A stretch of DNA of 64,000 nt, taken from assembly GCA_004297205.1 (NCBI GenBank), contig SCUL01000001.1, forward strand, positions 29,862 to 93,861, in the 5' to 3' direction. Of this stretch, positions 12,431 through 50,495 are shown piece by piece. The DNA comes from Patescibacteria group bacterium (GTDB lineage Bacteria; Patescibacteriota; Patescibacteriia; 2-12-FULL-57-11). Both the position numbers and the translations under genes were made by a program. The notes under the pieces were generated by a model. It was not told the origin of the DNA and did no database searches. It worked only from the letters and a program-made list of their open reading frames with translations. The first letter of the stretch is position 1. Each line of letters begins with the position of its first letter.

Positions 12431-14191
12431 TTATTCGGTGTCCTCTTCCTCGCTGATGCGCAACACTTCTTCAACGGTGGTGATGCCGGCCAAGGCCTTC
12501 AGGATACCATCCTGCTTGAGCGAAATCATCCCTTGTCGGCGCGCTTCGGCGCGGATCTCGTCGGGCTTGGCGCCGCTGCTGATGATGCGCTGCAAGTCGC
12601 GGCTCACCGGGAGAATCTCGGCAATCGAGACGCGGCCCTGGTACCCCGAGTCGCCGCAGGTCTTGCAGCCCTTCCCGGCATAGAACACCAGCTGCCCCTC
12701 GATGCTGACGCCTTCCGGCAGCAAGCTGGCGGGCACGTTTTTCAGGTCCTTGCGCAGCACCTCGACGACCTCCTGCGGGATGTCGGTCGGGGCTTTGCAG
12801 TCCTTGCAAATGCGGCGTGCCAAACGCTGGGCGATGCCGACGTTGATGGTCGCGGCGATCAGGAACGGCTCCACGCCCAGGTCGACAAGCCGCGGAATGA
12901 TGCCGAAAACGTCGTTGGTGTGGATGGTGGAGAAGATCAGGTGGCCGGTCAGCGCGGCATGGACGGCCAGCTCGGCCGTTTCCTTGTCGCGGATTTCGCC
13001 GACCATGATGACGTTGGGGTCCTGACGGAGCAGGGCGCGCAGACCGGAGGCGAAGGTGTAACCGATCTCCGGGCGGATCTGCGACTGGTTAACGCCCTTG
13101 ATGTAGTACTCGACCGGGTCTTCCAAGGTCACGATGTTCTGCCCCTCGGCGTTCATCATGTTCAGCGTCGTGTAGAGCGTCGTGGATTTTCCGGAACCCG
13201 TGGGACCGGACACGAGCACGAGTCCGTGCGGCTGGGAAATTTCCTTCTTGATGATGGCGATGTTTTCCGGACGGTAGCCGAGCTGCTCCAGCGTCGGCAC
13301 GCCGACGGACGTGTCCAAGATACGCATCACGACCTTCTCGTTGTCGACGACCGGGATGGTCGACACGCGGAAGTCGATGACTTTGCCGCCCAGCGTCTGG
13401 GTGATGCGGCCGTCCTGCGGGATGCGCGTTTCGTCCAGCTTCAGGTTGGCCATCACTTTGACGCGGGAGACGACGGCGCCATGGATATAGGCGGGCAGGG
13501 TCAGCGAAGTGCGCAGCACGCCGTCGACGCGGTAGCGGACGCGCGTCTGCTTCCCGAACGGTTCGACGTGGATGTCGGAGGCGCCCTGTTCCACGGCGGC
13601 GCGCATGATGACGGACACCATGCGGGACACCGGTGCGCCCTTGATGACCTCTTCCATCGTGCCTTCGGCGGCTTCGGCGGCCTTGCCCGGGCCCTTTTCG
13701 AACTTGCCTTTGGCGATCTCCAGGGCCTTTTCGACTTCCTGTCCGAATTCCTCATAGCGGCGCAACGCCGCGGCCAGACTCGATTCCGACGTCACGGCGA
13801 GACGCGCCGTCATCCCCTTCCCTTCCGCGTAGAAGGTCACGGCCTGAACATGCGCGTAGTCTTCCGGATCGGCAATCGCCACGGACAGCTGGCTGCCGTC
13901 GACGGCATAAGCCACGGCGCGGTGCGCTTCGGCGATTTCGCGCGGCACCAGTTCAATCACTTCGCGCGGGATGTCCACGTCGCGCAGGTCGACGTAGGGC
14001 AGGCCGAGCACGGCGGCGCGGGCGCGGGCCAGCGCTTCTTCCGGAATGCCGGAGTCCTTGAGGATGCGCAGCTCGTCCGCGGGTTTTTTGGCGATATCGG
14101 CGCGCACCGCCGCGATTTGCGCGTCGGTGGCGTCTCCGGCGCGCTTGAGCGCGTCCAGAAGCGGCGAGGGTTGTGCGGGTGCAGCGGGCAT
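12431..14191 (-). CDS. pilB: Type IV pilus assembly ATPase (GspE/PilB family)
   Basis: Walker A VSGPTGSGKSTT and a tetracysteine (CKDC...CKTC). About 586 aa with GspII_E N-domain. Confidence 0.92.
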   Translation of the reverse strand: MPAAPAQPSPLLDALKRAGDATDAQIAAVRADIAKKPADELRILKDSGIPEEALARARAAVLGLPYVDLRDVDIPREVIELVPREIAEAHRAVAYAVDGSQLSVAIADPEDYAHVQAVTFYAEGKGMTARLAVTSESSLAAALRRYEEFGQEVEKALEIAKGKFEKGPGKAAEAAEGTMEEVIKGAPVSRMVSVIMRAAVEQGASDIHVEPFGKQTRVRYRVDGVLRTSLTLPAYIHGAVVSRVKVMANLKLDETRIPQDGRITQTLGGKVIDFRVSTIPVVDNEKVVMRILDTSVGVPTLEQLGYRPENIAIIKKEISQPHGLVLVSGPTGSGKSTTLYTTLNMMNAEGQNIVTLEDPVEYYIKGVNQSQIRPEIGYTFASGLRALLRQDPNVIMVGEIRDKETAELAVHAALTGHLIFSTIHTNDVFGIIPRLVDLGVEPFLIAATINVGIAQRLARRICKDCKAPTDIPQEVVEVLRKDLKNVPASLLPEGVSIEGQLVFYAGKGCKTCGDSGYQGRVSIAEILPVSRDLQRIISSGAKPDEIRAEARRQGMISLKQDGILKALAGITTVEEVLRISEEEDTE

Positions 14192-17339: not shown

Positions 17340-19361
17340 CTATCGCGGCGCGACGTCTGTGAATTTCGGCAGCGACGACACCACGTCGGCCATGCCCGGT
17401 GGCGGATTGGCCACGGCCCGACCGTCATACGTGATGCGTTCCGCAGGCTCCCCGCCCGCGGACGCGGCGCGTTCGAAGTTGAACTGGCGCGCGATCATCA
17501 AGCCGCCGACCTTCAAATGCTGGGTGCTGCCCGCGCCGGTGTAGACCGTGCCTTCCACGTAGTACGTGCCGACGATCTGGCTGACGCTCGCTTCCGACAG
17601 GCTGACCACGGCCGGCACAAGGACGGCCCCGCCCGCCGCGCGCTTGTCCACCACGATCACGCCGAGGGACGCCAGGTTGCGCAGCGTCCCGCCGGGCGCG
17701 CCCGCAGCGTAGCTCAGGTCGGCGTTGATGCTGAGTTTGCCTTCCACGAGGATGAGTCCGGCGCCGCTGCGCGTTCCGGCGGCGTTGCGGAACGCGCGCA
17801 GCGCGTTCACGTCAAGACCGTCCGGGAAGTAATAAACGCGGCCGTCGAGCACGTCCGGCACCTCGTTCCATTCGTCGGGCTGCAGCGTGGTGACGCGGCC
17901 GTAGGCGCCGCGCTTGATCCCGGCGATGTCGAGGCGGCCGAGCGGGCTGGCGTAGTTGGAAGATGCCGTCGGCAGCAGGAAGTCCTCGGGGTTCGGCACC
18001 GGGTCGCAGCCGGCCGTGCCGGAACCAGCCGCACCGCTCTGCACGACGAAGTTGACCGGCGCTCCTCCGCCGGCGGACACCAGGCAGAAGGTGGCGTTGG
18101 CCTGACCGGCGGGCGGCGGGTTCTCGGCGCGAATGCCGCGGCGCGAGTAAATATCCTCGAACAGCGCCTGCAGCCATGGCGTGTAGACCGGCTCGCAAAA
18201 CGTGGGGTTGCCGTCGCCGTCGACCGGACACTGGTTGGGATCGGCCGTCGGCATGCAGCGCAGCGCGTTGTCCACCTGGCAGATGCCCGGGCACCACGGC
18301 GCGCAGGAGGAGTCGAGGCAGTCGATGTCGCCGTCGACGTCGTTGTCGTTCACGTCGGAACAGGCCACCTGCTCCAGGCCGGCGCCGAAGACGAAGGCTT
18401 CTTCGTTTGCACAGACGCCGACGCCCAGACAATCCGTGTCCGCGCAGTCCACGCCGGAGGTCGGCTGGTCGTCGTAGTTGCCGAAGCCGTTGTCGACGTC
18501 GTTGTCCACGCCGTCGTCGCAGACGAGTTCCGTCGAGGGGCAGCCGTAAGCATCCTGATGCCAGCAGGTGTCGTTGTCGGCATCCAGCAGGTTGTCGGCG
18601 CAGTCGGTCCGGCCGTCGCCGTCGTTGTCGTTGGTGTCCGTGCACTCGGCCGGGGACGATTCGGGGCCGCAGGTGACGCCGCCCGGACCGGCCACGCCCA
18701 GGCAGTCGGTGTCCGCGCAGTCGACGCGGCCGTCCAGGTCGTTGTCGAGGCCGTCGGCGCAGAGCGTCTCGTTGGTCACGAGCGTGGCCGTGGAAAAATC
18801 GATCCAGCCGACGCCGGTGCCGTCGTCGTTGCCGTTCCAGGCGAACCCGGTGACCGTGCCGGTCCCCAGATTCATGGTCACGAAGTACTCGCCGCAACCG
18901 ACCGGTCCGCTGTTGTCGCAGTTCAGGGACACCCAACCGCGGCCCTTGAGCGACGGGATGTAGGCCCAGCCATGCACCTCATAATCGGCCGCCACCCAGG
19001 CGTAGACGCTGCCTCCGGGTTGCGTCGGCGCCGAGGCGTACGGGTTGCAGGTCTGACCGAAGCACATCCACCCCACGTTCTTGGACCAGGCCCAGCCCTT
19101 GATGCTGTAGCCGGTGGCGCCGCCGTACTGCCCGCTCACGGTATCCGCGATGTCCACGCCGTACTCCGGCGGACAGCCGCCGCCGGTGACGCAGTTCACG
19201 GAAAACCAGCCGACGCGCTCGCTCCACAACCACCCGCGCAGCCGGTCGCCGTCCGAGGCTCCCGCAGTCGACGCAAAAACCGCCGTGCCGAGCAGCACGA
19301 GGGTGCACGCCAACAATGCGGTGCGCCATGTCCTCCGCATGGCATCAGTATACCACGTCAA
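17340..19361 (-). CDS. Secreted 673-aa repeat protein: N-terminal aromatic GW...N.GW..F repeats plus Asp/Cys-rich calcium-binding-like repeats
   Basis: Signal peptide [28 protein letters not shown]. Four GWxWSxxVGWxxxNC-type repeats and four D-x-D-N-D-x-D-G-x-x-D-C-A-D-x-D-C units (MopE/TSP3-like). First gene of the pilus operon. Confidence 0.7.
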
Positions 19362-39220: not shown

Positions 39221-39289
39221 GTCGTCCTCCGTTTCTCCCGTCGTGGGGTGCCGACACCCTTTCAAACCTGAAGGTTTCTGTCAATCCCT

Positions 39290-40180
39290 TTATGGCAGCT
39301 TGATCCGGCCCCGCTCCATGCTGATCAAACCATCAGCAGCCAGCCCGGTCAGCGCTTTCACGACGCGCAGTTCGGTGATGCCGCGGTCGCGTTGTTGCAG
39401 CGAGGTGAGCAGCGCCGGCACGGCCAGGCTCGGCCGCTCGCGCAGCAGCATCAGGACGAGTCCGCGCACGTAGCGTTGCGACTCCTTGAACGGCACGACT
39501 TTCTTCCTCCGCGACGCGGTGATCTCCATCCCCTTCCGCTCGATGGCCGGCCGCGCTTTGCAGACGGTAGCGAGCGGACAAGAGACGCACGCCGGACGCT
39601 TCGCGGTACAGACCGCGGAACCGAAATCCATGATCGCCTGATTCCAGTCGTAGCTGCCGCGCGGCACCAATGCATCGGCCGCGTCCTGCAACGCCGCATC
39701 GTCCTTGGCCGCCCTCCCCCACTCCGGCCCGAAGACGACGCGCTGCACCCAGCGACGCACGTTCACGTCGAGCACCGACAGCCGTGCGCCGAAAGCGAAC
39801 ACGGCGAGCGCGCGGCTGGTGTACGGGCCCACGCCGGGCAACTCTTGCAGCCCGTCGACATCTTTCGGCCAACCGCCACGCGCCACGACGGCTTGGGCCG
39901 TCTTCTGCAGAAACAACGCCCTGCGGTTGTAGCCGAGTCCTCCCCACAGACGGATGACATCCGCCGCAGACGCGCCGGCCAGCGCCTCGACCGTGGGAAA
40001 CCGTTCCAGGAACCGTTCGTAAAAAGGAATGACACGGTCGACCTGCGTCTGCTGGAGCATGACTTCGGACACCAGGATGCGGTACGGATCCGTCTCGCCG
40101 CGCCACGGCAGCATGCGGCCGTGGCGGCGGTACCAGGCAAGCACTCTTTTGGCGATGATCGGGCGATCTGGCGGCGGCAT
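39290..40180 (-). CDS. mutY: HhH-GPD DNA glycosylase, MutY-like (4Fe-4S)
   Basis: LVSEVMLQQTQV, LPGVGPYT (HhH-GPD) and CTAKRPACVSCPLATVC (FCL 4Fe-4S loop). 296 aa, no obvious NUDIX domain. Confidence 0.85.
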   Translation of the reverse strand: MPPPDRPIIAKRVLAWYRRHGRMLPWRGETDPYRILVSEVMLQQTQVDRVIPFYERFLERFPTVEALAGASAADVIRLWGGLGYNRRALFLQKTAQAVVARGGWPKDVDGLQELPGVGPYTSRALAVFAFGARLSVLDVNVRRWVQRVVFGPEWGRAAKDDAALQDAADALVPRGSYDWNQAIMDFGSAVCTAKRPACVSCPLATVCKARPAIERKGMEITASRRKKVVPFKESQRYVRGLVLMLLRERPSLAVPALLTSLQQRDRGITELRVVKALTGLAADGLISMERGRIKLP

Positions 40181-40198
40181 GACGATACCCTACCACCA

Positions 40199-40227
40199 TT
40201 GACGGGACGCCGAAAATCCGCTAGCTT
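40199..40227 (+). promoter_or_regulatory. Sigma70-like promoter for cellulose-synthase-like GT2 gene (leaderless or near-leaderless)
   Basis: TTGACG - 17 nt - TAGCTT, with the -10 ending 6 nt before the ATG at 40234 and no Shine-Dalgarno. Confidence 0.45.
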
Positions 40228-40233
40228 CGCCCC

Positions 40234-41775
40234 ATGTCCACCCCCGCCCTCAGCGCCTCGAAACCTGCGGACCCGACGGTCTACCTGATCCGCCATCCTT
40301 GGCAGATCCGCCTGGTGTATGTCCTCGGCATCCTGACCTGGTTCAGCGTTGTCTGGGGATACGTCTTGTTCTTCCAGCTCAACCCCTGGTACTGGCTGAT
40401 CTTCGGCCCGATCGTCGGCGTGTTCACGATCTATCACGTGCTCGCCTACGGCATCAACGCCTGCTATCCGGGCTTCGACCTGGCCGCGCACGAGCGGCGC
40501 GTGAAAAGCCATTGGCAGCACGCCACCGCTCCGGCCGTCGACATCTTCGTCCCCGTGGCCGGCGAATCCGTCGACCTCTTGCGCCGCACGTTTGCCGCGG
40601 TCCGTGTCATCGACTACGGGCCGAAGACAGTCTACGTCCTCGATGACAAGCCGAGCGCCGCCGTGCGCCAGCTGGCCGGCGAGATGGGTTTCCGGTACCT
40701 GACGCGCCCCGACCCGGGGCACATGAAGAAGTCCGGCAACCTCAAGCACGGCCATGAGAACAGCACCAGCCCGTTCATCGCCTACTTCGACGCCGACTTC
40801 GCGCCGCACCCGCAGTTCCTGCGCGAGCTGCTCCCCTACATGGACGACCCGAGGGTGGCCATCGTCCAGTCGCCGCAGTACTTCGACGTCGATGCCGCGC
40901 TGCATGAACGCGCGCCCGTGGCCTTCGGCGCCGGCCATTTGCAGCAGGACTTCTACCGCATCATCCAGCCGGCGCGCGACCGCTTCGGCGCGGCCATCTG
41001 CGTCGGCACCAACGCCCTCTACCGCCGCAGCGCGCTCGATGCGGTGGGCGGCGTCGAGCAGATCGAACACAGCGAAGACATCCTGACCGGCTTCAAGCTG
41101 ACCGCGCAGGGCTGGAAGATCCGTTACGTGCCGCTCGTGCTTGCCACCGGCTTCTGCCCCGAGGACATCCATACCTATTTCCACCAGCAGCACCGTTGGT
41201 GTTCCGGCACGCTCACGCTCTGCCTCTCGAAGCGTTTCTGGACGGCGCACCTGCCGCTCGCCATCAAGCTCTGCTACCTGGCCGGCTTTTTCTACTACCT
41301 GTTCCAGCCGCTGGCGCTTCTGATGGTGTTCCAAATGTTCGTCGTGCTGTTCCTCCACTTCGACGCCATCACCCTCCGCCATGCGCTACCGTTCGTGCCC
41401 CACATCCTGTTCATCACGCTCGTGATCCCGCTGACCCGCGGCACGGCCTCGCGCTTCGGCACATTCCTGGCGCGTACCACCCACGTCTTCAGCGCAAGCC
41501 ATGCCATCCTCTCGCACGCCGCCGGCCGCCGGCTTGAATGGCAGCCGACCAACGTCCGCGTGACGCGGGTCTCCCCCGCCTTCCTGCTGCTCCTGGGCAT
41601 GAGCGCGCTCCACTTCGGCCTGCAGGCAGTGCTCGTCGTCCTCGCGGTGATGACGTATCACGCCGCGCTGATCCGGCTCCACTATTTCCCGGTGACCCTG
41701 TGGATCGCCTACCACCTCGTCACCGGCGGCATGTTCCTCGCGCACGCGACGGCCGCAATGCGCCGTCCGGCATAA
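40234..41775 (+). CDS. Membrane glycosyltransferase family 2, cellulose synthase/BcsA-like processive beta-glycan synthase
   Basis: N-terminal TMs, a GT2 core (D, DAD...) with QQHRW (QxxRW) and C-terminal TMs. Confidence 0.85.
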   Translation: MSTPALSASKPADPTVYLIRHPWQIRLVYVLGILTWFSVVWGYVLFFQLNPWYWLIFGPIVGVFTIYHVLAYGINACYPGFDLAAHERRVKSHWQHATAPAVDIFVPVAGESVDLLRRTFAAVRVIDYGPKTVYVLDDKPSAAVRQLAGEMGFRYLTRPDPGHMKKSGNLKHGHENSTSPFIAYFDADFAPHPQFLRELLPYMDDPRVAIVQSPQYFDVDAALHERAPVAFGAGHLQQDFYRIIQPARDRFGAAICVGTNALYRRSALDAVGGVEQIEHSEDILTGFKLTAQGWKIRYVPLVLATGFCPEDIHTYFHQQHRWCSGTLTLCLSKRFWTAHLPLAIKLCYLAGFFYYLFQPLALLMVFQMFVVLFLHFDAITLRHALPFVPHILFITLVIPLTRGTASRFGTFLARTTHVFSASHAILSHAAGRRLEWQPTNVRVTRVSPAFLLLLGMSALHFGLQAVLVVLAVMTYHAALIRLHYFPVTLWIAYHLVTGGMFLAHATAAMRRPA

Positions 41776-41802
41776 AAAAGCCCCTCCGGCGAACGGATGG
41801 GC

Positions 41803-42459
41803 TCATGCCACGATGACCTGCCACACCTGCGGATGCAGCGTGCTGTTGTAGACCACGCACTCCGAGAGCATGCGGACGAGCGGCGTGCGCTGCAGCGCGA
41901 CCTTCCGCCACGGCGCGCCGAGACGCGCAGAGAGCAGCCATGCGCGCAGGATGTCGAGCGTATGCTGCAGGACGCGCTGCTCGATTTTGAACGCAGCCGA
42001 GTGGTGCGGGAAGAGCGACTTGAACGCCGCGGTCGTCTGCGCATGCAAGCGGATCCAGGCAGTGGAGGACTCCAGCTTCTTCAGGATCGCGGCCGTTTCC
42101 GGAGGATGATTCGCCGCGGCCATCAACCCCCGCAACAGCCACTGCTCGCCGAAGTTGCGCGTCGCGAGCGGATTCGCCCTCTCGTGACGATGGGACAGCG
42201 CAGGTGCGCCGTCCTCCGCCGTCGCCGCGGCGATGAGCGCGCGCAGCGAAACGGGGTGGACCTGGACGCCGTTGTGTCCGAAGGACGCGCCGATCGCTTC
42301 CGCCGTCCGGCAGAGCAGCGCATCGGATGCCGACGCCAGCGCGAACGATCCGCCCGTGAGCCGCGCCCGATACGTCGCCAACGCTTTCTCGAGAACGAGC
42401 CGTTGCTTCCTGGGAATCGACCGGGCCGGAAGCAGCACGGCCGCGTCTTTCGAAAACAT
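41803..42459 (-). CDS. Hypothetical cytoplasmic protein (218 aa)
   Basis: Start MFSKDAAVLL preceded by AAGAGGAAACGG. No family recognised. Confidence 0.5.
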   Translation of the reverse strand: MFSKDAAVLLPARSIPRKQRLVLEKALATYRARLTGGSFALASASDALLCRTAEAIGASFGHNGVQVHPVSLRALIAAATAEDGAPALSHRHERANPLATRNFGEQWLLRGLMAAANHPPETAAILKKLESSTAWIRLHAQTTAAFKSLFPHHSAAFKIEQRVLQHTLDILRAWLLSARLGAPWRKVALQRTPLVRMLSECVVYNSTLHPQVWQVIVA

Positions 42460-42535
42460 CCGTTTCCTCTTTCTGCCGCGGCTCTTCCGCAGCCGCCGCA
42501 CCTTAGCGCGCCTGCCGCAAAAGCAAAAGAGTCTT

Positions 42536-45500
42536 CTAAAAATTCCTGCCGTCCCCCGGATACTGGACCGACGCCGCGGCGGTCGCCGGATCGTAGTCGG
42601 CGGGAGAGATCACGTCGCTGCCAAAGGCGTAGTTGCCGTAGAGGACGTCATTCACGTCATCGACCATCTGATTCCAATCGGGGCCGTAGATCGTGGCCGC
42701 GATGAGTTCGGAGGTGATCCAACGCAGGATGCCGCCGGAAGCGACGGCGTAGACTTTGGGATCGGTCAGGAACTTCACGAGACTGACGCCGGGCTTCGAG
42801 GTGACGTTTGCGCCGAGCGGGATGGTGGCGAGGTCCGACGCGCTCACGATCTGGATGCCGTTGAAGTCAGGGTACCAGGTGAAATAGACGTTTTCGTTCG
42901 GAAACGCATGGCGCTTGCCGTCGGTGCCGACGTCATAGACGGCGGGGTTGTCCGGCGTTTTGACGAGCGCATGGACAGCGACGTTGAGTCTTTGGAGATT
43001 GTCGAGAAGAGCGGTGGTCGGGGCGTTTGACGGCAGGGGTGCGGAGGTTGCAGGTGCGGGAGAAGCCGAAACCGTTCCTGTGACGGTGAGGAGGATCGTA
43101 TCCGTGTATGTCCCGGATGCGCCGCCGTTTGCGGTGTAGAACCGGACGTACACCGAGTGGTTGCCTGCGGCACAGACGGACAGACCCGTACAAAGGTTCC
43201 AGGATTTCGTTCTCGAGTACGTCTCAAGAGGAATGTTCGTGAAGTCCGCGCTGTTTGAAATCGCCATCGTCGCCGTGTCCGAACCGCCGATGAGCGTCAG
43301 CGTCACCGCCGTGCTCGTCGTGGATGGAGCGCCGCCGTTCACCGAGATGCTGAACCCGGTCATGGGGGGCTGGGGCGCGGAAACGTCGCCCCCGCCGCGG
43401 GTGACAGCCACGGTCGCCTGCCCGAACAAACCGAAGGTCGAGAATTGCGTGGTGGTGCACGTGACGGTATTCGTCTGTTCGTTCACGGAACAGCCCGTGA
43501 GCACGCTCCAAGCGGTCCCGTTCCAGCGGTAGATCCGCAAACTGGATTCATCAATGCCGGAAACATCGGCGGAGGCATACGCAATTCTCAGCGTGATGGG
43601 GTTGTTGAAGGACGTGATGGCCGTCGAAACGCCGGAGAGCGCTTGCAGGCTGTACATGTAACTGCCAATGGCGGAATAACCGCTCGGGGCGCTCGCCGTT
43701 GCAAGCACGGAGGCGGAATCCAGCTGGTTGATCTGGAAATTCGCATCGCTGCCGGAGAACGCCGCGGGCACGGTGAGCGTGATGCCGGTAGCGCCGCTCA
43801 ACAGGTTCATGGTGCCGCCGGCGGCAGCCGTCATGTCGGCGCTCGTTGATGCGGTGACGGCCGCGGAGCCGGTGCATCCGGTCGTCGTGAATGTGGCGTC
43901 CGACCCGGTGCCCAGGTTCGCATACGAGTCATTGGAACGCGGACGGTAATGGTAGGTCGTACACGGCAACAGTCCCGTGAGCGAGACGCTGTGGCTCGTG
44001 ACACGCGGCGATGTATCCGCTTCGGTGGACGTGCTGCCGTAGGCCGTCGTCAATCCGTAGTTGACCATCGAAGACCCGAGCTCGTTTGTCGTCCAAACGA
44101 CTTCCGCTCCCGACGCATTCGGCGTGGCGACAACGGAGGAGAACGTCGGACCAGCGAGATCGAATGCGAGAGAAATTTCCGCCGCGTTCGCCGTCTCATT
44201 CACCGTGGTCGCGTCGTTGTCATACGCAGAAACCGTGAAATAGTAAGTCTGTGCCGTGAGGCCGCTGATGTTCTTCGATAAGACGTTACCGACGTCCACC
44301 GTCGTCGTATAAACGCCCGGGGACGTGCCGTACTTCACCTTGTATCCGGCGACGGTGGCATCCACGGTCGAAAGATTGTTCCATGACAGTTGAACCGTAC
44401 TCGTCACCTGCGATGCGCTGAAACTCTTCGGACTCATGATGGAGAGCGCCCACAATCGCGCCATCTGCGTATGTCCGGCGGCGGTCGGATGCACGGGATC
44501 GCCCCCGTATAAGGCGATGTGGTTGCCGTAATACGTCCAGAAATCAGGCCCGCCGCCGAGTGCGTTGTTGCTCCGCAAGGTGACGATGTTCGGCAGATAA
44601 TTTTCGGTGTACGTATAGACGTTGCTGTAACTCGGTTTGGCGAGCCACATGGACGAACTCGCCGCGCCGTACGTGCTGGCGAGCGTGTTCATGATGGTCT
44701 GCATCTGTGACTGAAAATTCGTCGGTGTGACGGTCGCAATGCCGTCGTTCACGCCGAGGTGGATCAGCCACTTGTTCGGCACCAATGCCGCCTGCCGCGT
44801 CGACCACTGGCCGGTAGCCATGAGCGTGATGTAGTCCGTGGCTTTATAGCTTCCCCAGCCTTCATTCATGACGAACACCGGGTATCCGTAGTAGGTCGTG
44901 AGTTCGTCATTCAGTTCCGACATCCAGCTTTTCTTGTAAGAGAGCGATGTGGGTCCGAACTGGGCGAAGTTGCGATTGTCTGCTGACAGTGAACCCGCTG
45001 GCGCGTCTATCCAGCTCGTCACGGCCGTGGCGCCGTAATCCGTTCCGTAATACCCCTCCGTGATGGAATCGCCGATCGCCGTAATGATGTCGCCGATGCC
45101 GATGCTTGTAGCAGTGTCCTGATCGCCGGCGCCGGTCTGCACCACCTGCGAAGAATTCACGACATGCGCATCCAGGGTATACGTACCCTTGGCAAGCCCA
45201 GTAAAACTCGCGGTGAACGGCGAACTCATGTCGTACAACGACTGCTCGGTGCCGAGCCCCTCATTCAAAATGAACTTCACGCCGCCTCCGGCCGGTAAGA
45301 CGGTGCTGCCGACCGTTGCTGCGACCGCAAGCGTCGTGCTCGTCTGGATGTACGGGATGTAAAAGGTACCGCCCTCGTCGGTGATCGCGACGGTCGCGGT
45401 CTGAGGAGAAAGCGCGACGCTGCGAGACGGCGACGTGATGCTGATCGCGTCACTCGACGTGCCGTAGGCGTAAAAATTGTCGAACGAACCCGCGACCACA

Positions 45501-47014
45501 TTCACCCCGGCGGCAACGTATCCGGAAGCAAACGGACTTGAACCGTCCGTGTACGTCATGAGCGGCGCGCCGCGCGTTCCGCCCACCGGGTAGATGTAGG
45601 CTTGCAACACGGGGTTTCCGCTCGGATTGTCGACGGCTTCGAGCTCCATCGTGTACCACACGCCGTTCGTCAGGGCGTAGCTCGCCGTGGTCAACGTCGT
45701 ATTGCCCGGTGCGCCGGCCGCGTGTTTCAACAAGTACCACGAGCTGGCATCGGCATGATGCAGCAGGTACCCGCCCCCGTTGCCCGTCGCCGCGGTTTTT
45801 CTCACCCACAACTGATGGTTATCTCCCGTTGATTCCAAAAAATCCACTTTCACCCGTTCGTTGACCCAGGCCGACTGGCCGTTTGCGATTTGATTCGTAT
45901 CGAACGTCCCAACGCCGCTCGTCTCACTCACCACTTTACCGCCGTTTCCCGCGGCGACCGCCCACGTTCCTGCGCCGACCGCTTGCCAGCTGTTTTGGCC
46001 GGCAATGGCCGCGGTGTTCAGCGCGTCAAACGTGTCCGAAAAAATCAAGTCCAACGGCTTTGAATTCGGATTGTTCGACGAAAGCCCTGTCCCGTCCGAT
46101 GTCACCGCCTTGACGTTGAACTCGTATCGGACGCCGTTCGTCAATCCCGTGACGGTCGCCGTTGCGGAAGCGCTCGTCCCATCGTCGAAGGTCGTCCATG
46201 TTGTTGCACCGTATATGCGGTATTGGATGACGTAATCTGTTACTGGATTGGCCGTCGAAGGCGCCGTCCAGTTCAGCAACATCGACCCGTCAAGACTGCT
46301 TGCCGTGAGGTCGGTAACGACCGCATCCGTGCCGGTCACGGAGACATCATCAAAGGTGCTCGCCGTCGTTGATGACTCGAGAAAAATCGGCTTATTCGTA
46401 ATGCTCGTGTCAACGGTCATGGAACACTGCGAGACAAGCCCGGCGCCCGTGTCCATCAACACATCGAAACCCGTTGCCGTCACGAGGAGTTTGTACGTCG
46501 CACCGCTGGTGAGCGTTCCACAACTTAGATTTGAATCTACTAACAATCCGTTGCTCCAGTGCAACGCATAAATCGGACCGGATGTTCCTGAGAGATCGAT
46601 AATATATGCCTTGGTGCCCGCTGCTTGAAAATTATAATCACCGTATCCAAGCAACTGAGCGGACCCCGGCGTCATCTTTGCGACGATGCTCAAATTCGTT
46701 CTTTGGAACGTACTCACGGAATAAACCGCCGTGTTCCCCCATGTTCCGGAAAGACTGTTTGAGACGGATAAGCTGCCGTTCTGCGAAATATTCGCGCCGG
46801 GATCGACGACCGTCCACTTGGCGGTGTCGATCGTCGAACCCGTGAACGTATCCGTCAAAAGAGTTGCTGCAAAAGTGAACGGTGCATGATGAAGGAAAGC
46901 GACGACGCTACCGATGACAAACAATGCGCCGAATACAAATACGCGTAACTTCGAGGACCCCCCCCCCGCGGTTTTTGCCGTTTTTTGATCATAATTCCGT
47001 TGCAACGACCGCAA
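42536..47014 (-). CDS. Giant secreted surface protein (1492 aa) with multiple FN3-like modules and an SGNH/GDSL hydrolase domain
   Basis: TTG-initiated ORF. Signal peptide ...LRVFVFGALFVIGSVVAFLHHAPFTFA. IGDSITEGYYG (GDSL block I). Several about 90-aa modules with ...YEFNVKAVT... / ...YYFTVSAYD... FN3 signatures. Confidence 0.8.
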   Translation of the reverse strand: MRSLQRNYDQKTAKTAGGGSSKLRVFVFGALFVIGSVVAFLHHAPFTFAATLLTDTFTGSTIDTAKWTVVDPGANISQNGSLSVSNSLSGTWGNTAVYSVSTFQRTNLSIVAKMTPGSAQLLGYGDYNFQAAGTKAYIIDLSGTSGPIYALHWSNGLLVDSNLSCGTLTSGATYKLLVTATGFDVLMDTGAGLVSQCSMTVDTSITNKPIFLESSTTASTFDDVSVTGTDAVVTDLTASSLDGSMLLNWTAPSTANPVTDYVIQYRIYGATTWTTFDDGTSASATATVTGLTNGVRYEFNVKAVTSDGTGLSSNNPNSKPLDLIFSDTFDALNTAAIAGQNSWQAVGAGTWAVAAGNGGKVVSETSGVGTFDTNQIANGQSAWVNERVKVDFLESTGDNHQLWVRKTAATGNGGGYLLHHADASSWYLLKHAAGAPGNTTLTTASYALTNGVWYTMELEAVDNPSGNPVLQAYIYPVGGTRGAPLMTYTDGSSPFASGYVAAGVNVVAGSFDNFYAYGTSSDAISITSPSRSVALSPQTATVAITDEGGTFYIPYIQTSTTLAVAATVGSTVLPAGGGVKFILNEGLGTEQSLYDMSSPFTASFTGLAKGTYTLDAHVVNSSQVVQTGAGDQDTATSIGIGDIITAIGDSITEGYYGTDYGATAVTSWIDAPAGSLSADNRNFAQFGPTSLSYKKSWMSELNDELTTYYGYPVFVMNEGWGSYKATDYITLMATGQWSTRQAALVPNKWLIHLGVNDGIATVTPTNFQSQMQTIMNTLASTYGAASSSMWLAKPSYSNVYTYTENYLPNIVTLRSNNALGGGPDFWTYYGNHIALYGGDPVHPTAAGHTQMARLWALSIMSPKSFSASQVTSTVQLSWNNLSTVDATVAGYKVKYGTSPGVYTTTVDVGNVLSKNISGLTAQTYYFTVSAYDNDATTVNETANAAEISLAFDLAGPTFSSVVATPNASGAEVVWTTNELGSSMVNYGLTTAYGSTSTEADTSPRVTSHSVSLTGLLPCTTYHYRPRSNDSYANLGTGSDATFTTTGCTGSAAVTASTSADMTAAAGGTMNLLSGATGITLTVPAAFSGSDANFQINQLDSASVLATASAPSGYSAIGSYMYSLQALSGVSTAITSFNNPITLRIAYASADVSGIDESSLRIYRWNGTAWSVLTGCSVNEQTNTVTCTTTQFSTFGLFGQATVAVTRGGGDVSAPQPPMTGFSISVNGGAPSTTSTAVTLTLIGGSDTATMAISNSADFTNIPLETYSRTKSWNLCTGLSVCAAGNHSVYVRFYTANGGASGTYTDTILLTVTGTVSASPAPATSAPLPSNAPTTALLDNLQRLNVAVHALVKTPDNPAVYDVGTDGKRHAFPNENVYFTWYPDFNGIQIVSASDLATIPLGANVTSKPGVSLVKFLTDPKVYAVASGGILRWITSELIAATIYGPDWNQMVDDVNDVLYGNYAFGSDVISPADYDPATAAASVQYPGDGRNF

Positions 47015-47091
47015 TGATTAGAGTATAACAAAATTCCAATCTCCATAAAAGGTTGTCCTTTGGGCATTTTTCGCGTATCTTTCCGTCGTAC

Positions 47092-47165
47092 TCCGGGGTC
47101 GTCTAATGGTAGGACATGGGCCTTTGAAGCCCAGTATCATGGTTCGAATCCATGTCCCGGAACCA
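47092..47165 (+). tRNA. tRNA-Gln (anticodon UUG)
   Basis: Cloverleaf: acceptor tccgggg/tcccgga, D-arm gtct..ggac, anticodon arm tgggc-cuUUGaa-gccca, T-arm catgg-ttcgaat-ccatg, discriminator A, encoded CCA. Confidence 0.9.
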
Positions 47166-47197
47166 AAAGAGCGCCACAGCTGTGGCGCTCTTTTCGT
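47166..47197 (+). terminator. Intrinsic terminator after tRNA-Gln
   Basis: AGAGCGCCACA-GC-TGTGGCGCTCT followed by TTTCGTTTG. Confidence 0.65.
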
Positions 47198-47279
47198 TTG
47201 AGAAAAAGAAGAACTTGCCACTCGAAAGCATTTGCCTCGTACCGCCGAGGCCTGTAGAGACATCAGTCGATGGGTCAAG

Positions 47280-47800
47280 CGCGGACTCTAGATTGTGACA
47301 AATCAACCTAAGAGATACCCTGCTCACTGAAAGGTGTTAACTTGTCTCTAGACTATGACCGCCGACCCATACTTTCAGCCAGTGTCGGGAGACGAGTTGG
47401 CTGATACTTTCCGGCAAAAATGTGGCGACTCCCCGATCGCAACATATGATACCGATTATCAGTTCAATTATCTGAATCTCACTCTACTTCTTGGAATAGT
47501 GATTGTTGCTGCTTTGATAATTCACAAAAACCGTTCAAGAGTTGCAAAGCATGCAATGAGGATTGGAATATTTCTAAAAAGCCATATTTTGACTTCTCTC
47601 TTAATAATCTTGGCAATCACGTTGTCCTTCTCAATTGCCGCAGGCAACTTGGAGCTCAGGAATCGGATGGAAGAAAGTCTTGGACGCATTCCCGATCACT
47701 TTTACTCGGTTAACCATACCCCAACAAAGGCATACTTGGATGCTTATCAGGAATATTGGGGGTGCGGTAACAGCTTCTAAAAGACCTCCTCGGAACCAAA
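47280..47800. other. Low-GC islet (about 40% GC against about 68% flanks) immediately 3' of tRNA-Gln
   Basis: Visibly AT-rich 60-nt blocks (30-45% GC) spanning one small ORF. Short imperfect direct repeats ctctagattgtgac (47286) and ctctagactatgac (47346). Confidence 0.4.
47355..47780 (+). CDS. Low-GC small membrane protein (141 aa), likely horizontally acquired
   Basis: ATG start. Two TM helices (LTLLLGIVIVAALII and ILTSLLIILAITLSFSIAAG). Codon usage clearly AT-rich, unlike its neighbours. Confidence 0.5.
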   Translation: MTADPYFQPVSGDELADTFRQKCGDSPIATYDTDYQFNYLNLTLLLGIVIVAALIIHKNRSRVAKHAMRIGIFLKSHILTSLLIILAITLSFSIAAGNLELRNRMEESLGRIPDHFYSVNHTPTKAYLDAYQEYWGCGNSF

Positions 47801-47830
47801 AGCGCCTCGCATCTTGCGAGGCGCTTTTTG
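47798..47830. terminator. Bidirectional intrinsic terminator
   Basis: AAAGCGCCTCGC-ATCTT-GCGAGGCGCTTT followed by TTG, flanked by an A-run and a T-run. Confidence 0.6.
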
Positions 47831-47851
47831 CATAAAAAACACCCGCCGCAG

Positions 47852-48370
47852 TCAGCGGAGGGGCATGCGGTAGACGTGCGTGTCCACGCGCTCGTAGCCG
47901 AGGTTGACGTAGAACTGATGTGCATCGGCGCGGTGCGCGCGGCTGGTGAGCTGCATGCGCACGACGTTCTCGGCCTTGGCGACGCGATGCGCAATCGTCA
48001 TGAGCGTCCGGGCGATCCCCTGGCGCTGATGGGACGCGGTGACGATGACGTTGTGGATCGTCGCGTAGCGCCCGTGCATCGACTCGTGGATGCACAGCGT
48101 GACCATGCCGACAACATGTCCACGCCAGTCTTCGGCAACGAAGACGCGCTCCTTCTCGACCGTCGCCGCGATCGCCTCGGGCTTCAGCTCCACGTCGCGA
48201 CCGGACAACTCGCACAGCAGTTTCCAGACGTCCTTGGTAGAACTCTCGTCCAACGGCACATCATGGCGGTCGATCTCCTGCGGCCAGGAGTCGACACGGG
48301 ACAGCTCTGGCCGGGACAGATACCCGTAGCTGAGCACTTTTGTAACCCAGAGCGGAATCTCTTCCGACAT
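47852..48370 (-). CDS. GNAT family N-acetyltransferase
   Basis: ...VVGMVTLCIHESMHGRYATIHNVIVTASHQRQGIARTLM... contains GNAT motif A (Q/RxxGxA-like). Confidence 0.85.
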   Translation of the reverse strand: MSEEIPLWVTKVLSYGYLSRPELSRVDSWPQEIDRHDVPLDESSTKDVWKLLCELSGRDVELKPEAIAATVEKERVFVAEDWRGHVVGMVTLCIHESMHGRYATIHNVIVTASHQRQGIARTLMTIAHRVAKAENVVRMQLTSRAHRADAHQFYVNLGYERVDTHVYRMPLR

Positions 48371-48430
48371 GACAAACCTCCCGGCGCAGCGTACGCGGCG
48401 GCCGGGAGGAGGTCAATGACGGCGACCTTC

Positions 48431-48700
48431 TTACTTCATCTTCACGACCGTGTTCCAAATCATGGCGAGGACCCAACCCACGACGTAGCCGAAGAGGAAC
48501 GTCACGACGACGAGCCCGATCGCCGATCCGAGATTGAACGGCAGCACGGTGTACGGCGGCGTGATCATGTGCAGCCGGAAAATGAAGTCCAAGAACGGCT
48601 GTGCCAACCCCAAGAGGACGAGCAGCGACCAGACGAGGTGCCACAGGCCGAGGAAACTGCCGAAAATAAGACCGCACTTCTGCACATTGAGGGTGTTCAT
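48431..48700 (-). CDS. Small membrane protein (2 TM), hypothetical
   Basis: MNTLNVQKCGLIFGSFLGLWHLVWSLLVLLGLAQ... Immediately upstream of ftsX. Confidence 0.45.
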   Translation of the reverse strand: MNTLNVQKCGLIFGSFLGLWHLVWSLLVLLGLAQPFLDFIFRLHMITPPYTVLPFNLGSAIGLVVVTFLFGYVVGWVLAMIWNTVVKMK

Positions 48701-48710
48701 ACCCAATGGG

Positions 48711-49625
48711 TTACCGCTTGAGGTATCTGCCGACCGCGATGCCGCTCGTGATGGTCGTGAGCGCGGCGGCGACCAGGAATTCGATGCCGAAGATGCGCCA
48801 ACCTTCGCGTTCGAAGAAGCCGAGCAGGTCGAACTGCGTGCCGTCGAAGAAGTTGCGGATGCTGGGGCCGACCGCGCCGGACAGCGGGAAGATCACGGCC
48901 GCGGCGATGAGCGTGCCGAGCAGGCTGTAGAGCAACGCCTCGATGATGTACGGCATGCGGATGAACCAGGCCGACGCCCCGACCAGCCGCATGATGCCGA
49001 TTTCTTCGCGGTGCGTGTAAATCGTGATGCGGATGGAGTTCCAGACGATCAGCAGCGAAATGATGGCGAACAGCGCGCTGACGCTGATCGCGGTGCGCTC
49101 GACCTTCTCGGAAATGCGGCGGATGCGGGCGATCAAGTCCCGGTGGTCGTCGAAGTTCTTTTCCTGGATGTACGGCGCATAGGACGGATGTTCGAGCGAC
49201 GCCAGGATGGCCGGGTAGTCGTTGGTGCTGCGTGCCTTCACGGCCAGCGACGGCCCGAGCGGATTCTTGCCGAGCTCGCTGACCGCGTTCTGGATGGCTT
49301 CGTTGTCGGGATGCCGTTCCTGCAGCTTACGCAGCGCTTCGTCGGCGCTCGTCACGGTCACTTCCATGACGCTCGGCTGCGCCAACAGCGACGACTTCAT
49401 GGCAGCCACGACTTCCTCCCCCGCCGTCGGCTTGAGATAGACGGAGACGGAAATGCGCTGCGAGACGGCGTCGAGTGCCACGCCCGCCAGGATGTTCAGG
49501 ACGAGCAGGATGTTCACGGAAATGAGCGCGAGCGCCAGGATGCTCGTCGTCACCACGGACAGCCAAAAATTCCGGACGAAGTCCTGGAGCGAGGCTTTGA
49601 TGACGCGGAAGAAGGAAATGAACAT
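48711..49625 (-). CDS. ftsX: Cell division ABC transporter permease FtsX
   Basis: 304 aa with 4 TM helices and a large periplasmic loop. Located directly downstream of ftsE. Confidence 0.88.
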   Translation of the reverse strand: MFISFFRVIKASLQDFVRNFWLSVVTTSILALALISVNILLVLNILAGVALDAVSQRISVSVYLKPTAGEEVVAAMKSSLLAQPSVMEVTVTSADEALRKLQERHPDNEAIQNAVSELGKNPLGPSLAVKARSTNDYPAILASLEHPSYAPYIQEKNFDDHRDLIARIRRISEKVERTAISVSALFAIISLLIVWNSIRITIYTHREEIGIMRLVGASAWFIRMPYIIEALLYSLLGTLIAAAVIFPLSGAVGPSIRNFFDGTQFDLLGFFEREGWRIFGIEFLVAAALTTITSGIAVGRYLKR

Positions 49626-49632
49626 GGTCCCC

Positions 49633-50325
49633 CTAGAGCAGATATTTGCCGACTTCCTGGTCGGACACCACCTGGCCGGCGTCCAGCGTGACGACGCGGC
49701 GGCGCAGGGTATTCACGACTTCGCGGTTGTGGGTCACGAGCAGCACGGTGGTGCCGAACTGGTTGATCTTAACCAGCAGGTCGATGATCTCGCGCGTGTT
49801 GATGGAGTCGAGGTTGCCGGTCGGCTCGTCGGCCACGAAAATCTTGGGTCGGTGGACGAGCGCGCGGGCGATGGCGGCGCGCTGCTTTTCACCGCCGGAC
49901 AGCTGGACCGGGTATCGCTGAGCCTTCTCTTCGAGCCCCACGATCTTCAGCACTTGCGGCACGACCGTTCGGATGCGCTTCATGGACGCACCGGAAACTT
50001 CCAGGGCGAAGGCCACGTTCTCGTAGATGGTCTTTTGCGGCAGGAGCTTGAAATCCTGGAACACGACGCCCATCTGGCGGCGTAACAGCGGGATGTCCTT
50101 TCCCTTGATCCGGGTCACGTCCCAGCCGCCGATCTCGATCCGGCCGCGATCCGGCCGCTCTTCGGCAATCAGGAGCTTGACCAGCGTGGTTTTTCCGGTG
50201 CCGCTCTGGCCGACGATGGAGACGAATTCTCCCGGGCGGATGCGCAAATTGACGTTGGTCACGCCCACGATGTCCGGATGGTACATCCGGCTCACGTCCT
50301 GAAATTGAATCATCGTGTCCGCCAT
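49633..50325 (-). CDS. ftsE: Cell division ABC transporter ATPase FtsE
   Basis: True start MADTMIQFQDV. Walker A GQSGTGKTT, ABC signature LSGGEKQR and Walker B IFVADEPTGNLD. The upstream 64 aa of the ORF are antisense translation of two tRNA genes. Confidence 0.92.
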   Translation of the reverse strand: MADTMIQFQDVSRMYHPDIVGVTNVNLRIRPGEFVSIVGQSGTGKTTLVKLLIAEERPDRGRIEIGGWDVTRIKGKDIPLLRRQMGVVFQDFKLLPQKTIYENVAFALEVSGASMKRIRTVVPQVLKIVGLEEKAQRYPVQLSGGEKQRAAIARALVHRPKIFVADEPTGNLDSINTREIIDLLVKINQFGTTVLLVTHNREVVNTLRRRVVTLDAGQVVSDQEVGKYLL

Positions 50326-50359
50326 GGGGATCCGGAGTTTTTTGCCGGCCTTCAAGATC

Positions 50360-50388
50360 TTGCTTAGCTGAAATAGCGGTGTTAGTAT
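50360..50388 (+). promoter_or_regulatory. Sigma70-like promoter for tRNA-Gly/tRNA-Thr
   Basis: TTGCTT - 17 nt - TAGTAT, ending about 33 nt before the tRNA-Gly 5' end. Confidence 0.4.
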
Positions 50389-50421
50389 AGCACACGCCGA
50401 AACCGGGCATAGCCCGCGCTC

Positions 50422-50495
50422 GCGGGTATAGTTCAATGGTAAAACGACTGCTTCCCAAGCAGTAGTCGCGGGTTCGATTCCCGCTACCCGCTCCA
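50422..50495 (+). tRNA. tRNA-Gly (anticodon CCC)
   Basis: Acceptor gcgggta/tacccgc, anticodon arm actgc-uuCCCaa-gcagt, T-arm gcggg-ttcgatt-cccgc, discriminator T, encoded CCA. Confidence 0.9.

Follow-up and report, generated by a model that had tools for sequence, protein, structure and literature searches.

The stretch of DNA analysed here, referred to as the window, covers 64,000 nucleotides (64 kb) of contig SCUL01000001.1 from a Patescibacteria group bacterium, and its largest gene is the open reading frame (ORF) 42536-47014 on the minus strand, which encodes a 1492-aa protein with an SGNH/GDSL hydrolase domain (LigA and Lon follow, with 804 and 789 aa). The protein is a rare head variant on a widespread modular scaffold. 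Its SGNH domain is predicted, from conserved positions and a structural model, to be an intact serine esterase in which Ser650 acts as nucleophile, His842 and Asp839 complete the triad and Gly719 and Asn756 form the oxyanion hole. With slightly more confidence than doubt, the protein as a whole is read as a wall-retained surface carbohydrate O-acetylesterase carried on a stalk. What is new is the rare head on an undescribed but widespread Patescibacteria scaffold; multidomain surface SGNH esterases are known, and the enzyme biochemistry is ordinary. No description of this protein family, or of SGNH surface enzymes in the Candidate Phyla Radiation (CPR), was found in the literature.

The SGNH/GDSL cassette

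The esterase domain is recognized by the Pfam family Lipase_GDSL (PF00657), which, with a cut-off of 23.6, reaches 27.0 bits when the whole protein is scored and 34.1 bits when the segment is scored by itself; Lipase_GDSL_2 (PF13472) falls just below its cut-off of 32.9, with 26.6 and 31.9 bits, respectively. Searching with residues 636-868 returned 95 homologues at E-values from 1e-51 to 1e-17, covering at least 89% of the module at 34-47% identity, except for the two weakest, which are truncated. With a Pfam match above cut-off and this number of homologues, the domain is a genuine SGNH/GDSL domain, and the GDSIT motif from which the initial annotation had called it is not a spurious match.

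When residues 522-868 are aligned with 30 homologues (31 sequences in total), the SGNH domain and the Ig-like module preceding it ('KGSYTIPYIQS ... PGEY') prove to be conserved together as a single cassette. In this alignment the G-D-S-I-T-E-G of block I (AIGDSITEG, with Ser650 encoded at nt 45065-45067) is invariant, as are Asn717 and Gly719 of block II (NEGWG) and His842 of block V (DPVHP; nt 44489-44491), and conservation is at least 90% for Asn756 and Asp757 of block III (GVND) and for Asp839 of block V (nt 44498-44500). Ser650, Asp839 and His842 are thus all present in aligned positions, and the domain is not the degenerate one that had been considered at the outset. An insertion of about 45 residues specific to the subfamily, with the motif S-x-D-x-R-N-F-x-Q-x-x-P-T, separates blocks I and II.

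Structure prediction with AlphaFold2 (AF2) gives a confident SGNH fold. The cassette is modelled with a predicted local distance difference test score (pLDDT) of 86.9 and a predicted template-modelling score (pTM) of 0.88 as an all-beta N-terminal domain followed by an alpha/beta domain. Comparison of the model with PDB folds yielded 83 matches at E<=1e-3, the best 50 of which are almost all SGNH enzymes, with SGNH folds at E 1e-9 to 1e-6; model and matches together display the three-layer alpha/beta/alpha, flavodoxin-like fold. CE2_N (PF17996) had no match on residues 522-642 at E<=5, and SASA (PF03629) had none in the 1492-aa protein.

True homologues of the cassette, making up most of the 95, occur as stand-alone Ig-like plus SGNH enzymes of about 310-400 aa (P0121-P0213), which share all of the motifs at the same 34-47% identity; those aligned over their full length also have this Ig-like module ahead of the SGNH domain. 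Where named, their sources are Armatimonadota, Verrucomicrobiota, Hydrogenedentes, Victivallaceae and Bacteroidota. These are uncharacterised single-cassette proteins labelled 'SGNH/GDSL hydrolase' or 'lysophospholipase L1-like' and, unlike the protein from the window, they have no stalk, lectin-like modules or C-terminal S9 module.

A modular scaffold among Patescibacteria

The protein can be divided into a signal peptide and ten modules (Table 1), and every motif quoted by the initial annotation is present: YEFNVKAVT at aa 297, IGDSITEGYYG at aa 647, YYFTVSAYD at aa 924 and YHYRPRS at aa 1021. The gene's extent, its product length and its rank as largest in the window also agree with what was first stated. 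Domain annotation places three Pfam families above their cut-offs: Lipase_GDSL, fn3 (fibronectin type III, FN3; 58.6 bits against 25, in three stretches) and the FN3-like Pur_ac_phosph_N (40.1 bits on the whole protein and 37.7 on the segment, cut-off 30). A Kyte-Doolittle scan finds a single hydrophobic segment, at residues 20-49, followed by FTFA↓ATLLTD (the arrow marks the predicted cleavage site). Together with the fn3 score, this lone N-terminal segment bears out the earlier description of a secreted FN3-rich protein. The position of the cleavage junction is conserved among relatives, which read ...IQA↓ATLL, ...VFA↓ATLL and ...TFS↓ATLL, with ...A↓ATLL(T/S)D in P0003, P0013, P0022 and P0044.

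The two beta-rich modules of the head are more elusive. The N-module matches no Pfam family and in the PDB gave only sub-threshold matches, to the N-terminal strand of GH16 enzymes, plus one compositional match to a designed protein; module 2 has no Pfam match and no significant PDB sequence or profile match. Comparison of the two with hhalign indicated no relationship (probability 6%). The N-module is probably a lectin-like beta-sandwich; since neither module has a significant PDB or Pfam match, the term 'lectin-like' as applied to both is an inference. In the stalk, S7 has a weak NCBIfam match to PGF-pre-PGF (E 0.007, under the cut-off). The C-terminus had been described as long and Thr/Ser/Ala-rich, and the composition is as claimed (0.39-0.45 in the C-terminal third), but a low-complexity or disordered tail it is not, as three folded, conserved modules shared with relatives make up this region.

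The last of these modules, S9, is widespread. An exhaustive HMMER search detects it in 4356 representative proteins at E<=1e-3 and in 1,041 at E<=1e-30, and it is C-terminal in 123 of the 149 top matches. Its partner proteins have signal peptides and diverse extracellular domains (GH5, GH10, He_PIG, TSP3, PKD, LamG, CE2_N+GDSL), and those that bear a name are from Patescibacteria. No Pfam or NCBIfam family covers S9. It is modelled by AF2 with a pLDDT of 95.2, and the model has no significant neighbour among PDB folds, the best being EccB1 repeat domains (E 0.02, template-modelling score (TM) 0.3); in a viral fold library it matches only uncharacterised proteins, mostly from phage. EccB1 repeats weakly resemble the wall-binding protein PlyCB (PMC4769845). 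In relatives of the 1492-aa protein S9 occupies the slot otherwise filled by PG_binding_1, and the two are found together in L011 and L023. Because of this position and co-occurrence, its C-terminal appendage to many unrelated secreted enzymes and the weak fold similarity to EccB1, S9 is most economically read as a probable cell-wall retention module.

The comparison with giant surface proteins of Patescibacteria suggested by the initial annotation proved productive. A full-length search identified an orthologue, P0001 (84% identity; GCA_041643055.1), then P0002 (54% identity), which has part of the architecture with the same head and a PG_binding_1 end, and beyond these a large set of relatives of 1.2-2.3 thousand residues (kaa). 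Segment BLAST shows how unevenly the modules are shared. Module 2, the Ig-like plus SGNH cassette (522-857) and FN3b are shared only with P0001 and P0002, and S9 only with P0001 and P0102, plus a repeat in P0018. FN3c and S7 (955-1199) are 40-66% identical in most distant relatives (49-66% for FN3c alone), FN3a (aa 233-320) is common to distant relatives and S8 to some of them, and the N-module, often duplicated there, is 49-62% identical to one of two copies in most of the distant relatives examined.

A profile of FN3c-S7 scanned against species-representative genomes, a set which excludes the window's own genome and that of the orthologue, recovered 479 relatives, the best at 59%. The titles of the best 80 of these are nearly all Patescibacteria, with Paceibacteria, Saccharibacteria, Woesebacteria, Nomurabacteria, Gracilibacteria and Peribacteria among the groups represented. 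As a working definition, the family is taken to have a signal peptide, the N-module with 'ATLL(T/S)DxFTGTTI' and the FN3c-S7 stalk, all of which the 1492-aa protein possesses.

Local hidden Markov models (HMMs) applied to 79 loci of stalk relatives found seven SASA heads, 12 heads with a third type of module and about 35 PG_binding_1-like tails; the GDSL cassette was present in none of these 79 species-representative loci. A metagenome scan added three large proteins with the GDSL cassette (L084, L085 and L086, 39-43% identity) and a truncated fourth locus (L087, 47% identity). In L084, L085 and L086 the cassette is always paired with module 2, and the tails are S9 or S7-PG_binding; all large relatives found to have the GDSL cassette have module 2 as well.

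The SASA-headed giants P0003, P0008 and P0013 (1.5-2.3 kaa) have in common with the protein from the window the signal-peptide junction, FN3 modules, an N-module that is about 50-60% identical and, at 40-66% identity, the FN3c-S7(-S8) stalk. They differ in bearing an esterase of another family in place of the GDSL cassette (SASA, 'ITGESNSGG'; PF03629 scores 48.7 bits in the esterase slot of P0003), in a duplicated N-module, in having no module 2 and in ending mostly with PG_binding_1 instead of S9. As SASA or the third module stands at the equivalent position in relatives, the family is suggested to carry a swappable glycan-modifying head.

Three further observations concern these relatives. 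The third head module is an unannotated unit of about 400 aa ('QILSTGQSLSVG ... TIHGE(S/T)D') in the esterase slot of 12 of the 79 family loci; carriers include P0040, P0035, P0028 and P0043 and loci L004, L005, L008, L009, L013, L014 and others. The N-module is 30-35% identical to that of the MOD3-headed P0028, P0035 and P0040. Over the third module of P0040 there is no Pfam match and no PDB sequence match, and the GQS motif in it hints at an esterase of the SASA type. P0339 (TAK05711.1, Patescibacteria group bacterium) has a CE2_N+GDSL head, a module-2-like N-terminus and the same S8-S9 tail, which is 71% identical over 291 aa to that of the 1492-aa protein; with P0339 bearing another esterase type on this tail, more than one esterase head is in use on the same tail among related genomes. 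On its contig (L088), the gene for P0002 has as neighbours an HTH regulator, a DnaG-like primase and numerous small ORFs, which may represent a mobile-element context.

Substrate and competing readings

In the proposed mechanism, the protein would be exported by the Sec pathway and cleaved at FTFA↓ATLL, after which S9 would hold it at the cell wall and FN3b, FN3c, S7 and S8 would serve as a stalk projecting outward. The distal head would comprise the N-module, module 2, one FN3 module and the Ig-like plus SGNH cassette. Its beta-sandwich modules may bind a glycan or present it to the Ser650/His842/Asp839 esterase, which would remove O-acetyl (short acyl) groups; the glycan could be a partner-cell wall or capsular polysaccharide or an environmental polysaccharide. 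The number of G in a poly-G tract within the signal-peptide coding region would perhaps control expression, a lead discussed below. The analysis shows the gene, its domains, catalytic residues and fold, and the family with its taxonomy; the topology, the wall binding, the glycan substrate and any part in host interaction are inferred.

With moderate confidence, the enzyme is predicted to be a carbohydrate O-acetylesterase rather than a lipase, because of its fold neighbours, the fused beta-sandwich modules, the presence of SASA at the same position in relatives and the genomic contexts of the stand-alone enzymes. Of the 'esterase/lipase' first proposed, the esterase is retained, and the fold neighbours, beta-sandwich modules and SASA-bearing relatives lean away from the lipase. 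The best whole-model Foldseek matches are carbohydrate acetylesterases with an N-terminal beta-sandwich, at E-values of 5e-9 to 6e-8; the top matches include XAC1771 (7kmm, E 5e-9), YxiM (2o14), the mammalian sialic-acid esterase SIAE, CE2 (4xvh) and the acetylxylan esterase PbeAcXE, together with Axe2, a single-domain acetylxylan esterase. In two of three genomic contexts the stand-alone cassette enzymes lie with sugar-related genes, a BNR sialidase-like gene in one and genes for a lyxose isomerase and an FGGY kinase in another, which points weakly to glycans.

The two-domain carbohydrate acetylesterases (XAC1771 of Xanthomonas citri, 7kmm; B. subtilis YxiM, 2o14; CE2, 4xvh; PbeAcXE, 7tog) are secreted, act on acetylated glycans and, like the cassette, have a beta-sandwich followed by an SGNH domain. 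The cassette differs from them in sequence and fold score (12-16% identity, TM 0.38-0.49), in having no CE2_N Pfam match, in the insertion of about 45 residues between blocks I and II and in being embedded in a 1,492-aa stalked protein; it also has Asp839, with which the triad would be full.

Several points weigh against a wall-retained surface carbohydrate O-acetylesterase. Against carbohydrate esterases the whole model reaches a TM of only 0.4-0.5 at 9-17% identity, and the N-module and module 2 have no significant match to any known carbohydrate-binding family. The role of S9 in wall binding rests on its position and on weak fold matches (E 0.02). The canonical ATG is out of frame as assembled, which makes the expression state uncertain. 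The isolated SGNH core superposes best on TesA-type lysophospholipase/thioesterases (TMt about 0.8), and SGNH enzymes include lipases, thioesterases, proteases and acyltransferases. The Joint Genome Institute (JGI) labels relatives 'lysophospholipase L1-like esterase'.

The last of these points, the nearness of the core to TesA and lysophospholipase L1 and the JGI name, are also what speaks for a surface lipase or (lyso)phospholipase whose SGNH head would attack host membrane or free lipids and feed fatty acids or lysolipids to a CPR cell unable to make lipids. CPR bacteria are not known to carry out lipid biosynthesis, and profile searches of the PDB by sequence match TesA and GDSL lipases; these are only generic SGNH enzymes (TesA, Bacteroides GDSL-like) at E 1e-6 to 1e-3. 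This reading is considered unlikely. Similarity to TesA is superfamily-wide, at 16% identity, the JGI name is an automatic COG label, and the whole-model matches favour two-domain carbohydrate esterases; scaffold relatives bear SASA or CE2-type carbohydrate esterases in the same slot, and glycans are the substrates suggested by the beta-sandwich modules and by the genomic settings of the stand-alone enzymes.

A housekeeping enzyme acting on the cell's own envelope is less probable again. It could be an O-acetyl-peptidoglycan esterase (Ape-like), for which the PG_binding_1 ends of relatives and the peptidoglycan synthesis genes MurE and MurJ in the window could be cited, or a modifier of exopolysaccharide made by a cellulose-synthase-like glycosyltransferase family 2 (GT2) synthase encoded two genes away, which is also present in the orthologue locus. 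That synthase gene is, however, convergent and not co-oriented with the esterase gene, it is shared only with a genome that is about 80% identical and collinear throughout and so lends no independent support, and more distant GDSL-headed relatives have unrelated neighbours and no GT2. No O-acetyltransferase of the OatA, PatA or PatB type was seen near the gene, and a 1,492-aa stalked design with two lectin-like modules exceeds housekeeping need. Least probable by some distance is that the protein is mainly an adhesin or S-layer-type structural protein with a vestigial esterase, or that the gene is a decaying pseudogene with its canonical start out of frame. The many Ig and FN3 modules, the annotated orthologue P0001 without a signal peptide, the ATG frame broken in both assemblies and a G+C content at third codon positions (GC3) of 0.74, lower than in neighbouring genes, would fit such an account. 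Set against it, all catalytic residues are intact and conserved, and both genomes keep the 4.4-kb ORF open throughout, with 84% identity between the proteins, which is incompatible with drift; the sole frame problem lies exactly at a homopolymer, the expected site of reversible slippage or of sequencing error.

Gene start, genomic setting and significance

Table 1. Features of the gene for the 1492-aa protein and its immediate flanks (window coordinates)
Feature	Position	Strand	Evidence or remark
Whole ORF as assembled (TTG start; stop codon 42536-42538)	42536..47014	-	ORF list; orthologue P0001 84% identical and syntenic
Signal peptide region, aa 1-49	46868..47014	-	Charged n-region, h-region VFVFGALFVIGSVVAFL, c-region HHAPFTFA; predicted cleavage before ATLLTD
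N-module, aa 50-232; beta-rich, family hallmark 'LLTDxFTGTTIDTAKW ... LLGYGDYNF ... FDDV'	46319..46867	-	Segment BLAST
FN3 module a (FN3a), aa 233-320	46055..46318	-	Pfam fn3 at 234-314; titin/FN3con PDB matches
Module 2, aa 321-521; second beta-rich, putatively lectin-like module	45452..46054	-	Present in P0001, P0002, L084, L085, L086
Ig-like beta-sandwich, aa 522-642; N-terminal half of Ig+SGNH cassette ('TFYIPYIQTS ... KGTYTLDAH')	45089..45451	-	Alignment; all-beta in AF2 model
SGNH/GDSL hydrolase domain, aa 643-857	44444..45088	-	Pfam; conserved residues; AF2; PDB folds
FN3 module b (FN3b), aa 858-954	44153..44443	-	Pfam fn3 on segment, E 1.7e-4
FN3-like module c (FN3c), aa 955-1047; Pur_ac_phosph_N type, start of family-wide stalk	43874..44152	-	Pfam, 37.7-40.1 bits
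Stalk module S7, aa 1048-1199; conserved Cys pairs, 'FSTFGLFG' end, family-wide	43418..43873	-	Segment BLAST
Stalk module S8, aa 1200-1329; Ig-like ('MAISNSADF ... HSVYVRFYT'), then Pro/Ala/Ser linker	43028..43417	-	Shared with P0003, P0004, P0008, P0028, P0339
C-terminal module S9, aa 1330-1492; widespread unannotated domain, probable wall-retention module	42539..43027	-	HMMER, AF2, position
Poly-G tract, G10 in coding sense, inside signal-peptide n-region	46958..46967	-	Homopolymer census and in-silico frame analysis
ATG for canonical signal peptide (MIKKRQKPRGGGSSKLRVFVF...) if tract has 11 (or 8) G	46990..46992	-	Out of frame as assembled
Extended -10-like element TGTTATACT, putative promoter	47022..47030	-	Conserved in orthologue (TGATATACT)
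Downstream co-directional gene, 232-aa ORF, probably 217 aa from Met15	41803..42501	-	34 bp after stop; conserved in orthologue locus

The start codon is uncertain because of the G10 tract, which was revealed by aligning the 5' ends of the two orthologues and is the only homopolymer of at least 9 nt in the window. At the same place the orthologue locus (L001, 3419-3427) has G9, likewise its only homopolymer of this size in 15.8 kb, so that the two assemblies differ both in tract length and in frame state. With the 10 G assembled in the window the ORF opens at TTG 47014 only; with 11 or 8 G the downstream ATG comes into frame and a textbook signal peptide results (MIKKRQKPRGGGSSKLRVFVFGALFVIGSVVAFLHHAPFTFA), and with 9 or 12 G there is no start ahead of the hydrophobic core. 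In L001 the equivalent ATG and Lys-rich n-region are also one G out of frame: G9 as assembled offers no start, and P0001 as annotated has no signal peptide; a tract of G10 would yield MNSLWKKVKNSGGGANKRFRLLSFVAVLVIGSAIALFIGGPFTFA. The ATG frame alone is shared by the two genomes, and each assembly falls one G short of it. The element TGTTATACT would place the transcript start at about the TTG, favouring the ATG; a consensus promoter scan, which needs a -35 element, did not detect it.

In silico, length changes of this tract in the 5' coding region switch the reading frame, as in a contingency locus, and poly-G length may switch the gene on and off. Homopolymer mis-calling, slipped-strand phase variation and transcriptional slippage are equally open as explanations. 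Phase-variable surface genes of Neisseria, Haemophilus and Campylobacter carry homopolymeric tracts of this kind (contingency loci), and the likeness lies in a G9/G10 tract whose length toggles the frame of the start and signal peptide and which sits in the 5' part of the coding sequence for a large surface protein. The difference is that here the tract is known from two assemblies alone, both one G short of the length which brings the ATG into frame. To our knowledge, and with no literature search aimed at this point, homopolymeric contingency loci have not been reported in CPR. Homopolymers of at least 9 nt are rare in family loci (four in 805 kb), a family-wide search for 5' homopolymers found none, indicating that the tract is not a general family feature, and no further copy of the poly-G 5' region was found in the metagenome contigs scanned.

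The orthologue locus is collinear with the window at about 80% DNA identity over 39279-47167 and 48432-50495, and tRNA-Gln (47092-47165, plus strand), 77 bp upstream of the gene, is kept in the orthologue; an Rfam scan of the window detected tRNAs only. Between these two collinear stretches, a variable islet (47168-48431) begins exactly at the 3' end of tRNA-Gln and holds a 141-aa membrane ORF (47355-47780, 46% G+C) and a GNAT acetyltransferase (47852-48370); this position is filled in the orthologue locus by a 282-aa gene unrelated to them. The islet looks like a small variable insertion unrelated to the large gene, at a tRNA-adjacent insertion hot spot. The tRNA and low-GC islet noted by the initial annotation are thus present beside the gene, but the functional tie it drew from them does not hold, the tRNA being conserved synteny and the islet a separate insertion. 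The co-directional gene downstream has no Pfam match and is possibly co-transcribed with the large gene. An exopolysaccharide-modification operon with the GT2 synthase was considered and rejected, given the convergent orientation of GT2 and the unrelated neighbours of more distant GDSL-headed relatives. GC3 of the large gene is below the 0.80-0.92 of its neighbours and climbs along the gene, being 0.55 at its 5' end and 0.81 at its 3' end; these values would fit, and hint at, head modules that were acquired from relatives of lower GC or recombined with theirs.

The window has about 65% G+C, and its genes include LigA, RecJ, LepA, Lon, MurE, MurJ, FtsEX and a PilB-type ATPase. LepA shows 93% identity both to a protein from a 'Patescibacteria group bacterium' and to the LepA on the orthologue's contig, and about 67-71% identity to that of several Ca. 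Uhrbacteria, one of which has a name indicating 57% G+C. Judged from protein sequence, the organism is a high-GC Patescibacterium related to Ca. Uhrbacteria, and the initial annotation's proviso, 'if the organism is CPR', is settled by these LepA identities. Two other genes of the window may be mentioned. The PilB/GspE-type type IV pilus assembly ATPase (12431-14191, minus strand) fits the pilus-dependent lifestyle reported for cultivated Patescibacteria, and a 673-aa ORF (17340-19361, minus strand), in which NCBIfam NF033662 recognises an 'acidic double-disulfide repeat' at 66 bits, may likewise encode a secreted or surface protein.

Little is understood of the means by which CPR/Patescibacteria recognise, bind and exploit other cells, and studies of cultivated Saccharibacteria have implicated type IV pili but not much more. 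Receptor-destroying proteins, such as the haemagglutinin-esterases of influenza C and coronaviruses and the SGNH deacetylase tail spikes and fibres of phage, combine a glycan-binding module with an SGNH-type O-acetylesterase on a surface which has to engage the glycans of another cell. The 1492-aa protein resembles these by analogy only; phage tail proteins with SGNH folds are among the fold matches of the cassette (9d84, 9yf5). In the most far-reaching and quite speculative reading, which is improbable as a whole, the protein would be a phase-variable, poly-G-gated lectin-esterase with which a CPR episymbiont recognises and deacetylates partner-cell glycans; esterase heads (GDSL, SASA, CE2-type, third module) and wall-binding tails (PG_binding_1, S9) would be shuffled on a common Patescibacteria-wide stalk to track host-surface diversity, making the family a cellular analogue of haemagglutinin-esterases and phage deacetylase tail spikes.

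CPR/Patescibacteria genomes encode few secreted proteins (PMC11495043). If the protein merely scavenges polysaccharide as an esterase, it would be an ordinary multidomain carbohydrate-active enzyme in an unusual organism. If the reading given here is right, it would provide a family-level candidate of giant stalked surface proteins with swappable glycan-esterase heads; the protein from the window would be its rare variant with a GDSL cassette, in which the catalytic residues are clear targets for mutation. S9 would then be a candidate new wall-retention module, helping to predict the surface proteomes of uncultivated bacteria, and the tract could represent a contingency-locus switch in the genome of a CPR bacterium. 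Concrete ways into the surface biology of CPR bacteria are offered by the modular family, by S9 as an abundant domain without annotation and by the poly-G tract.

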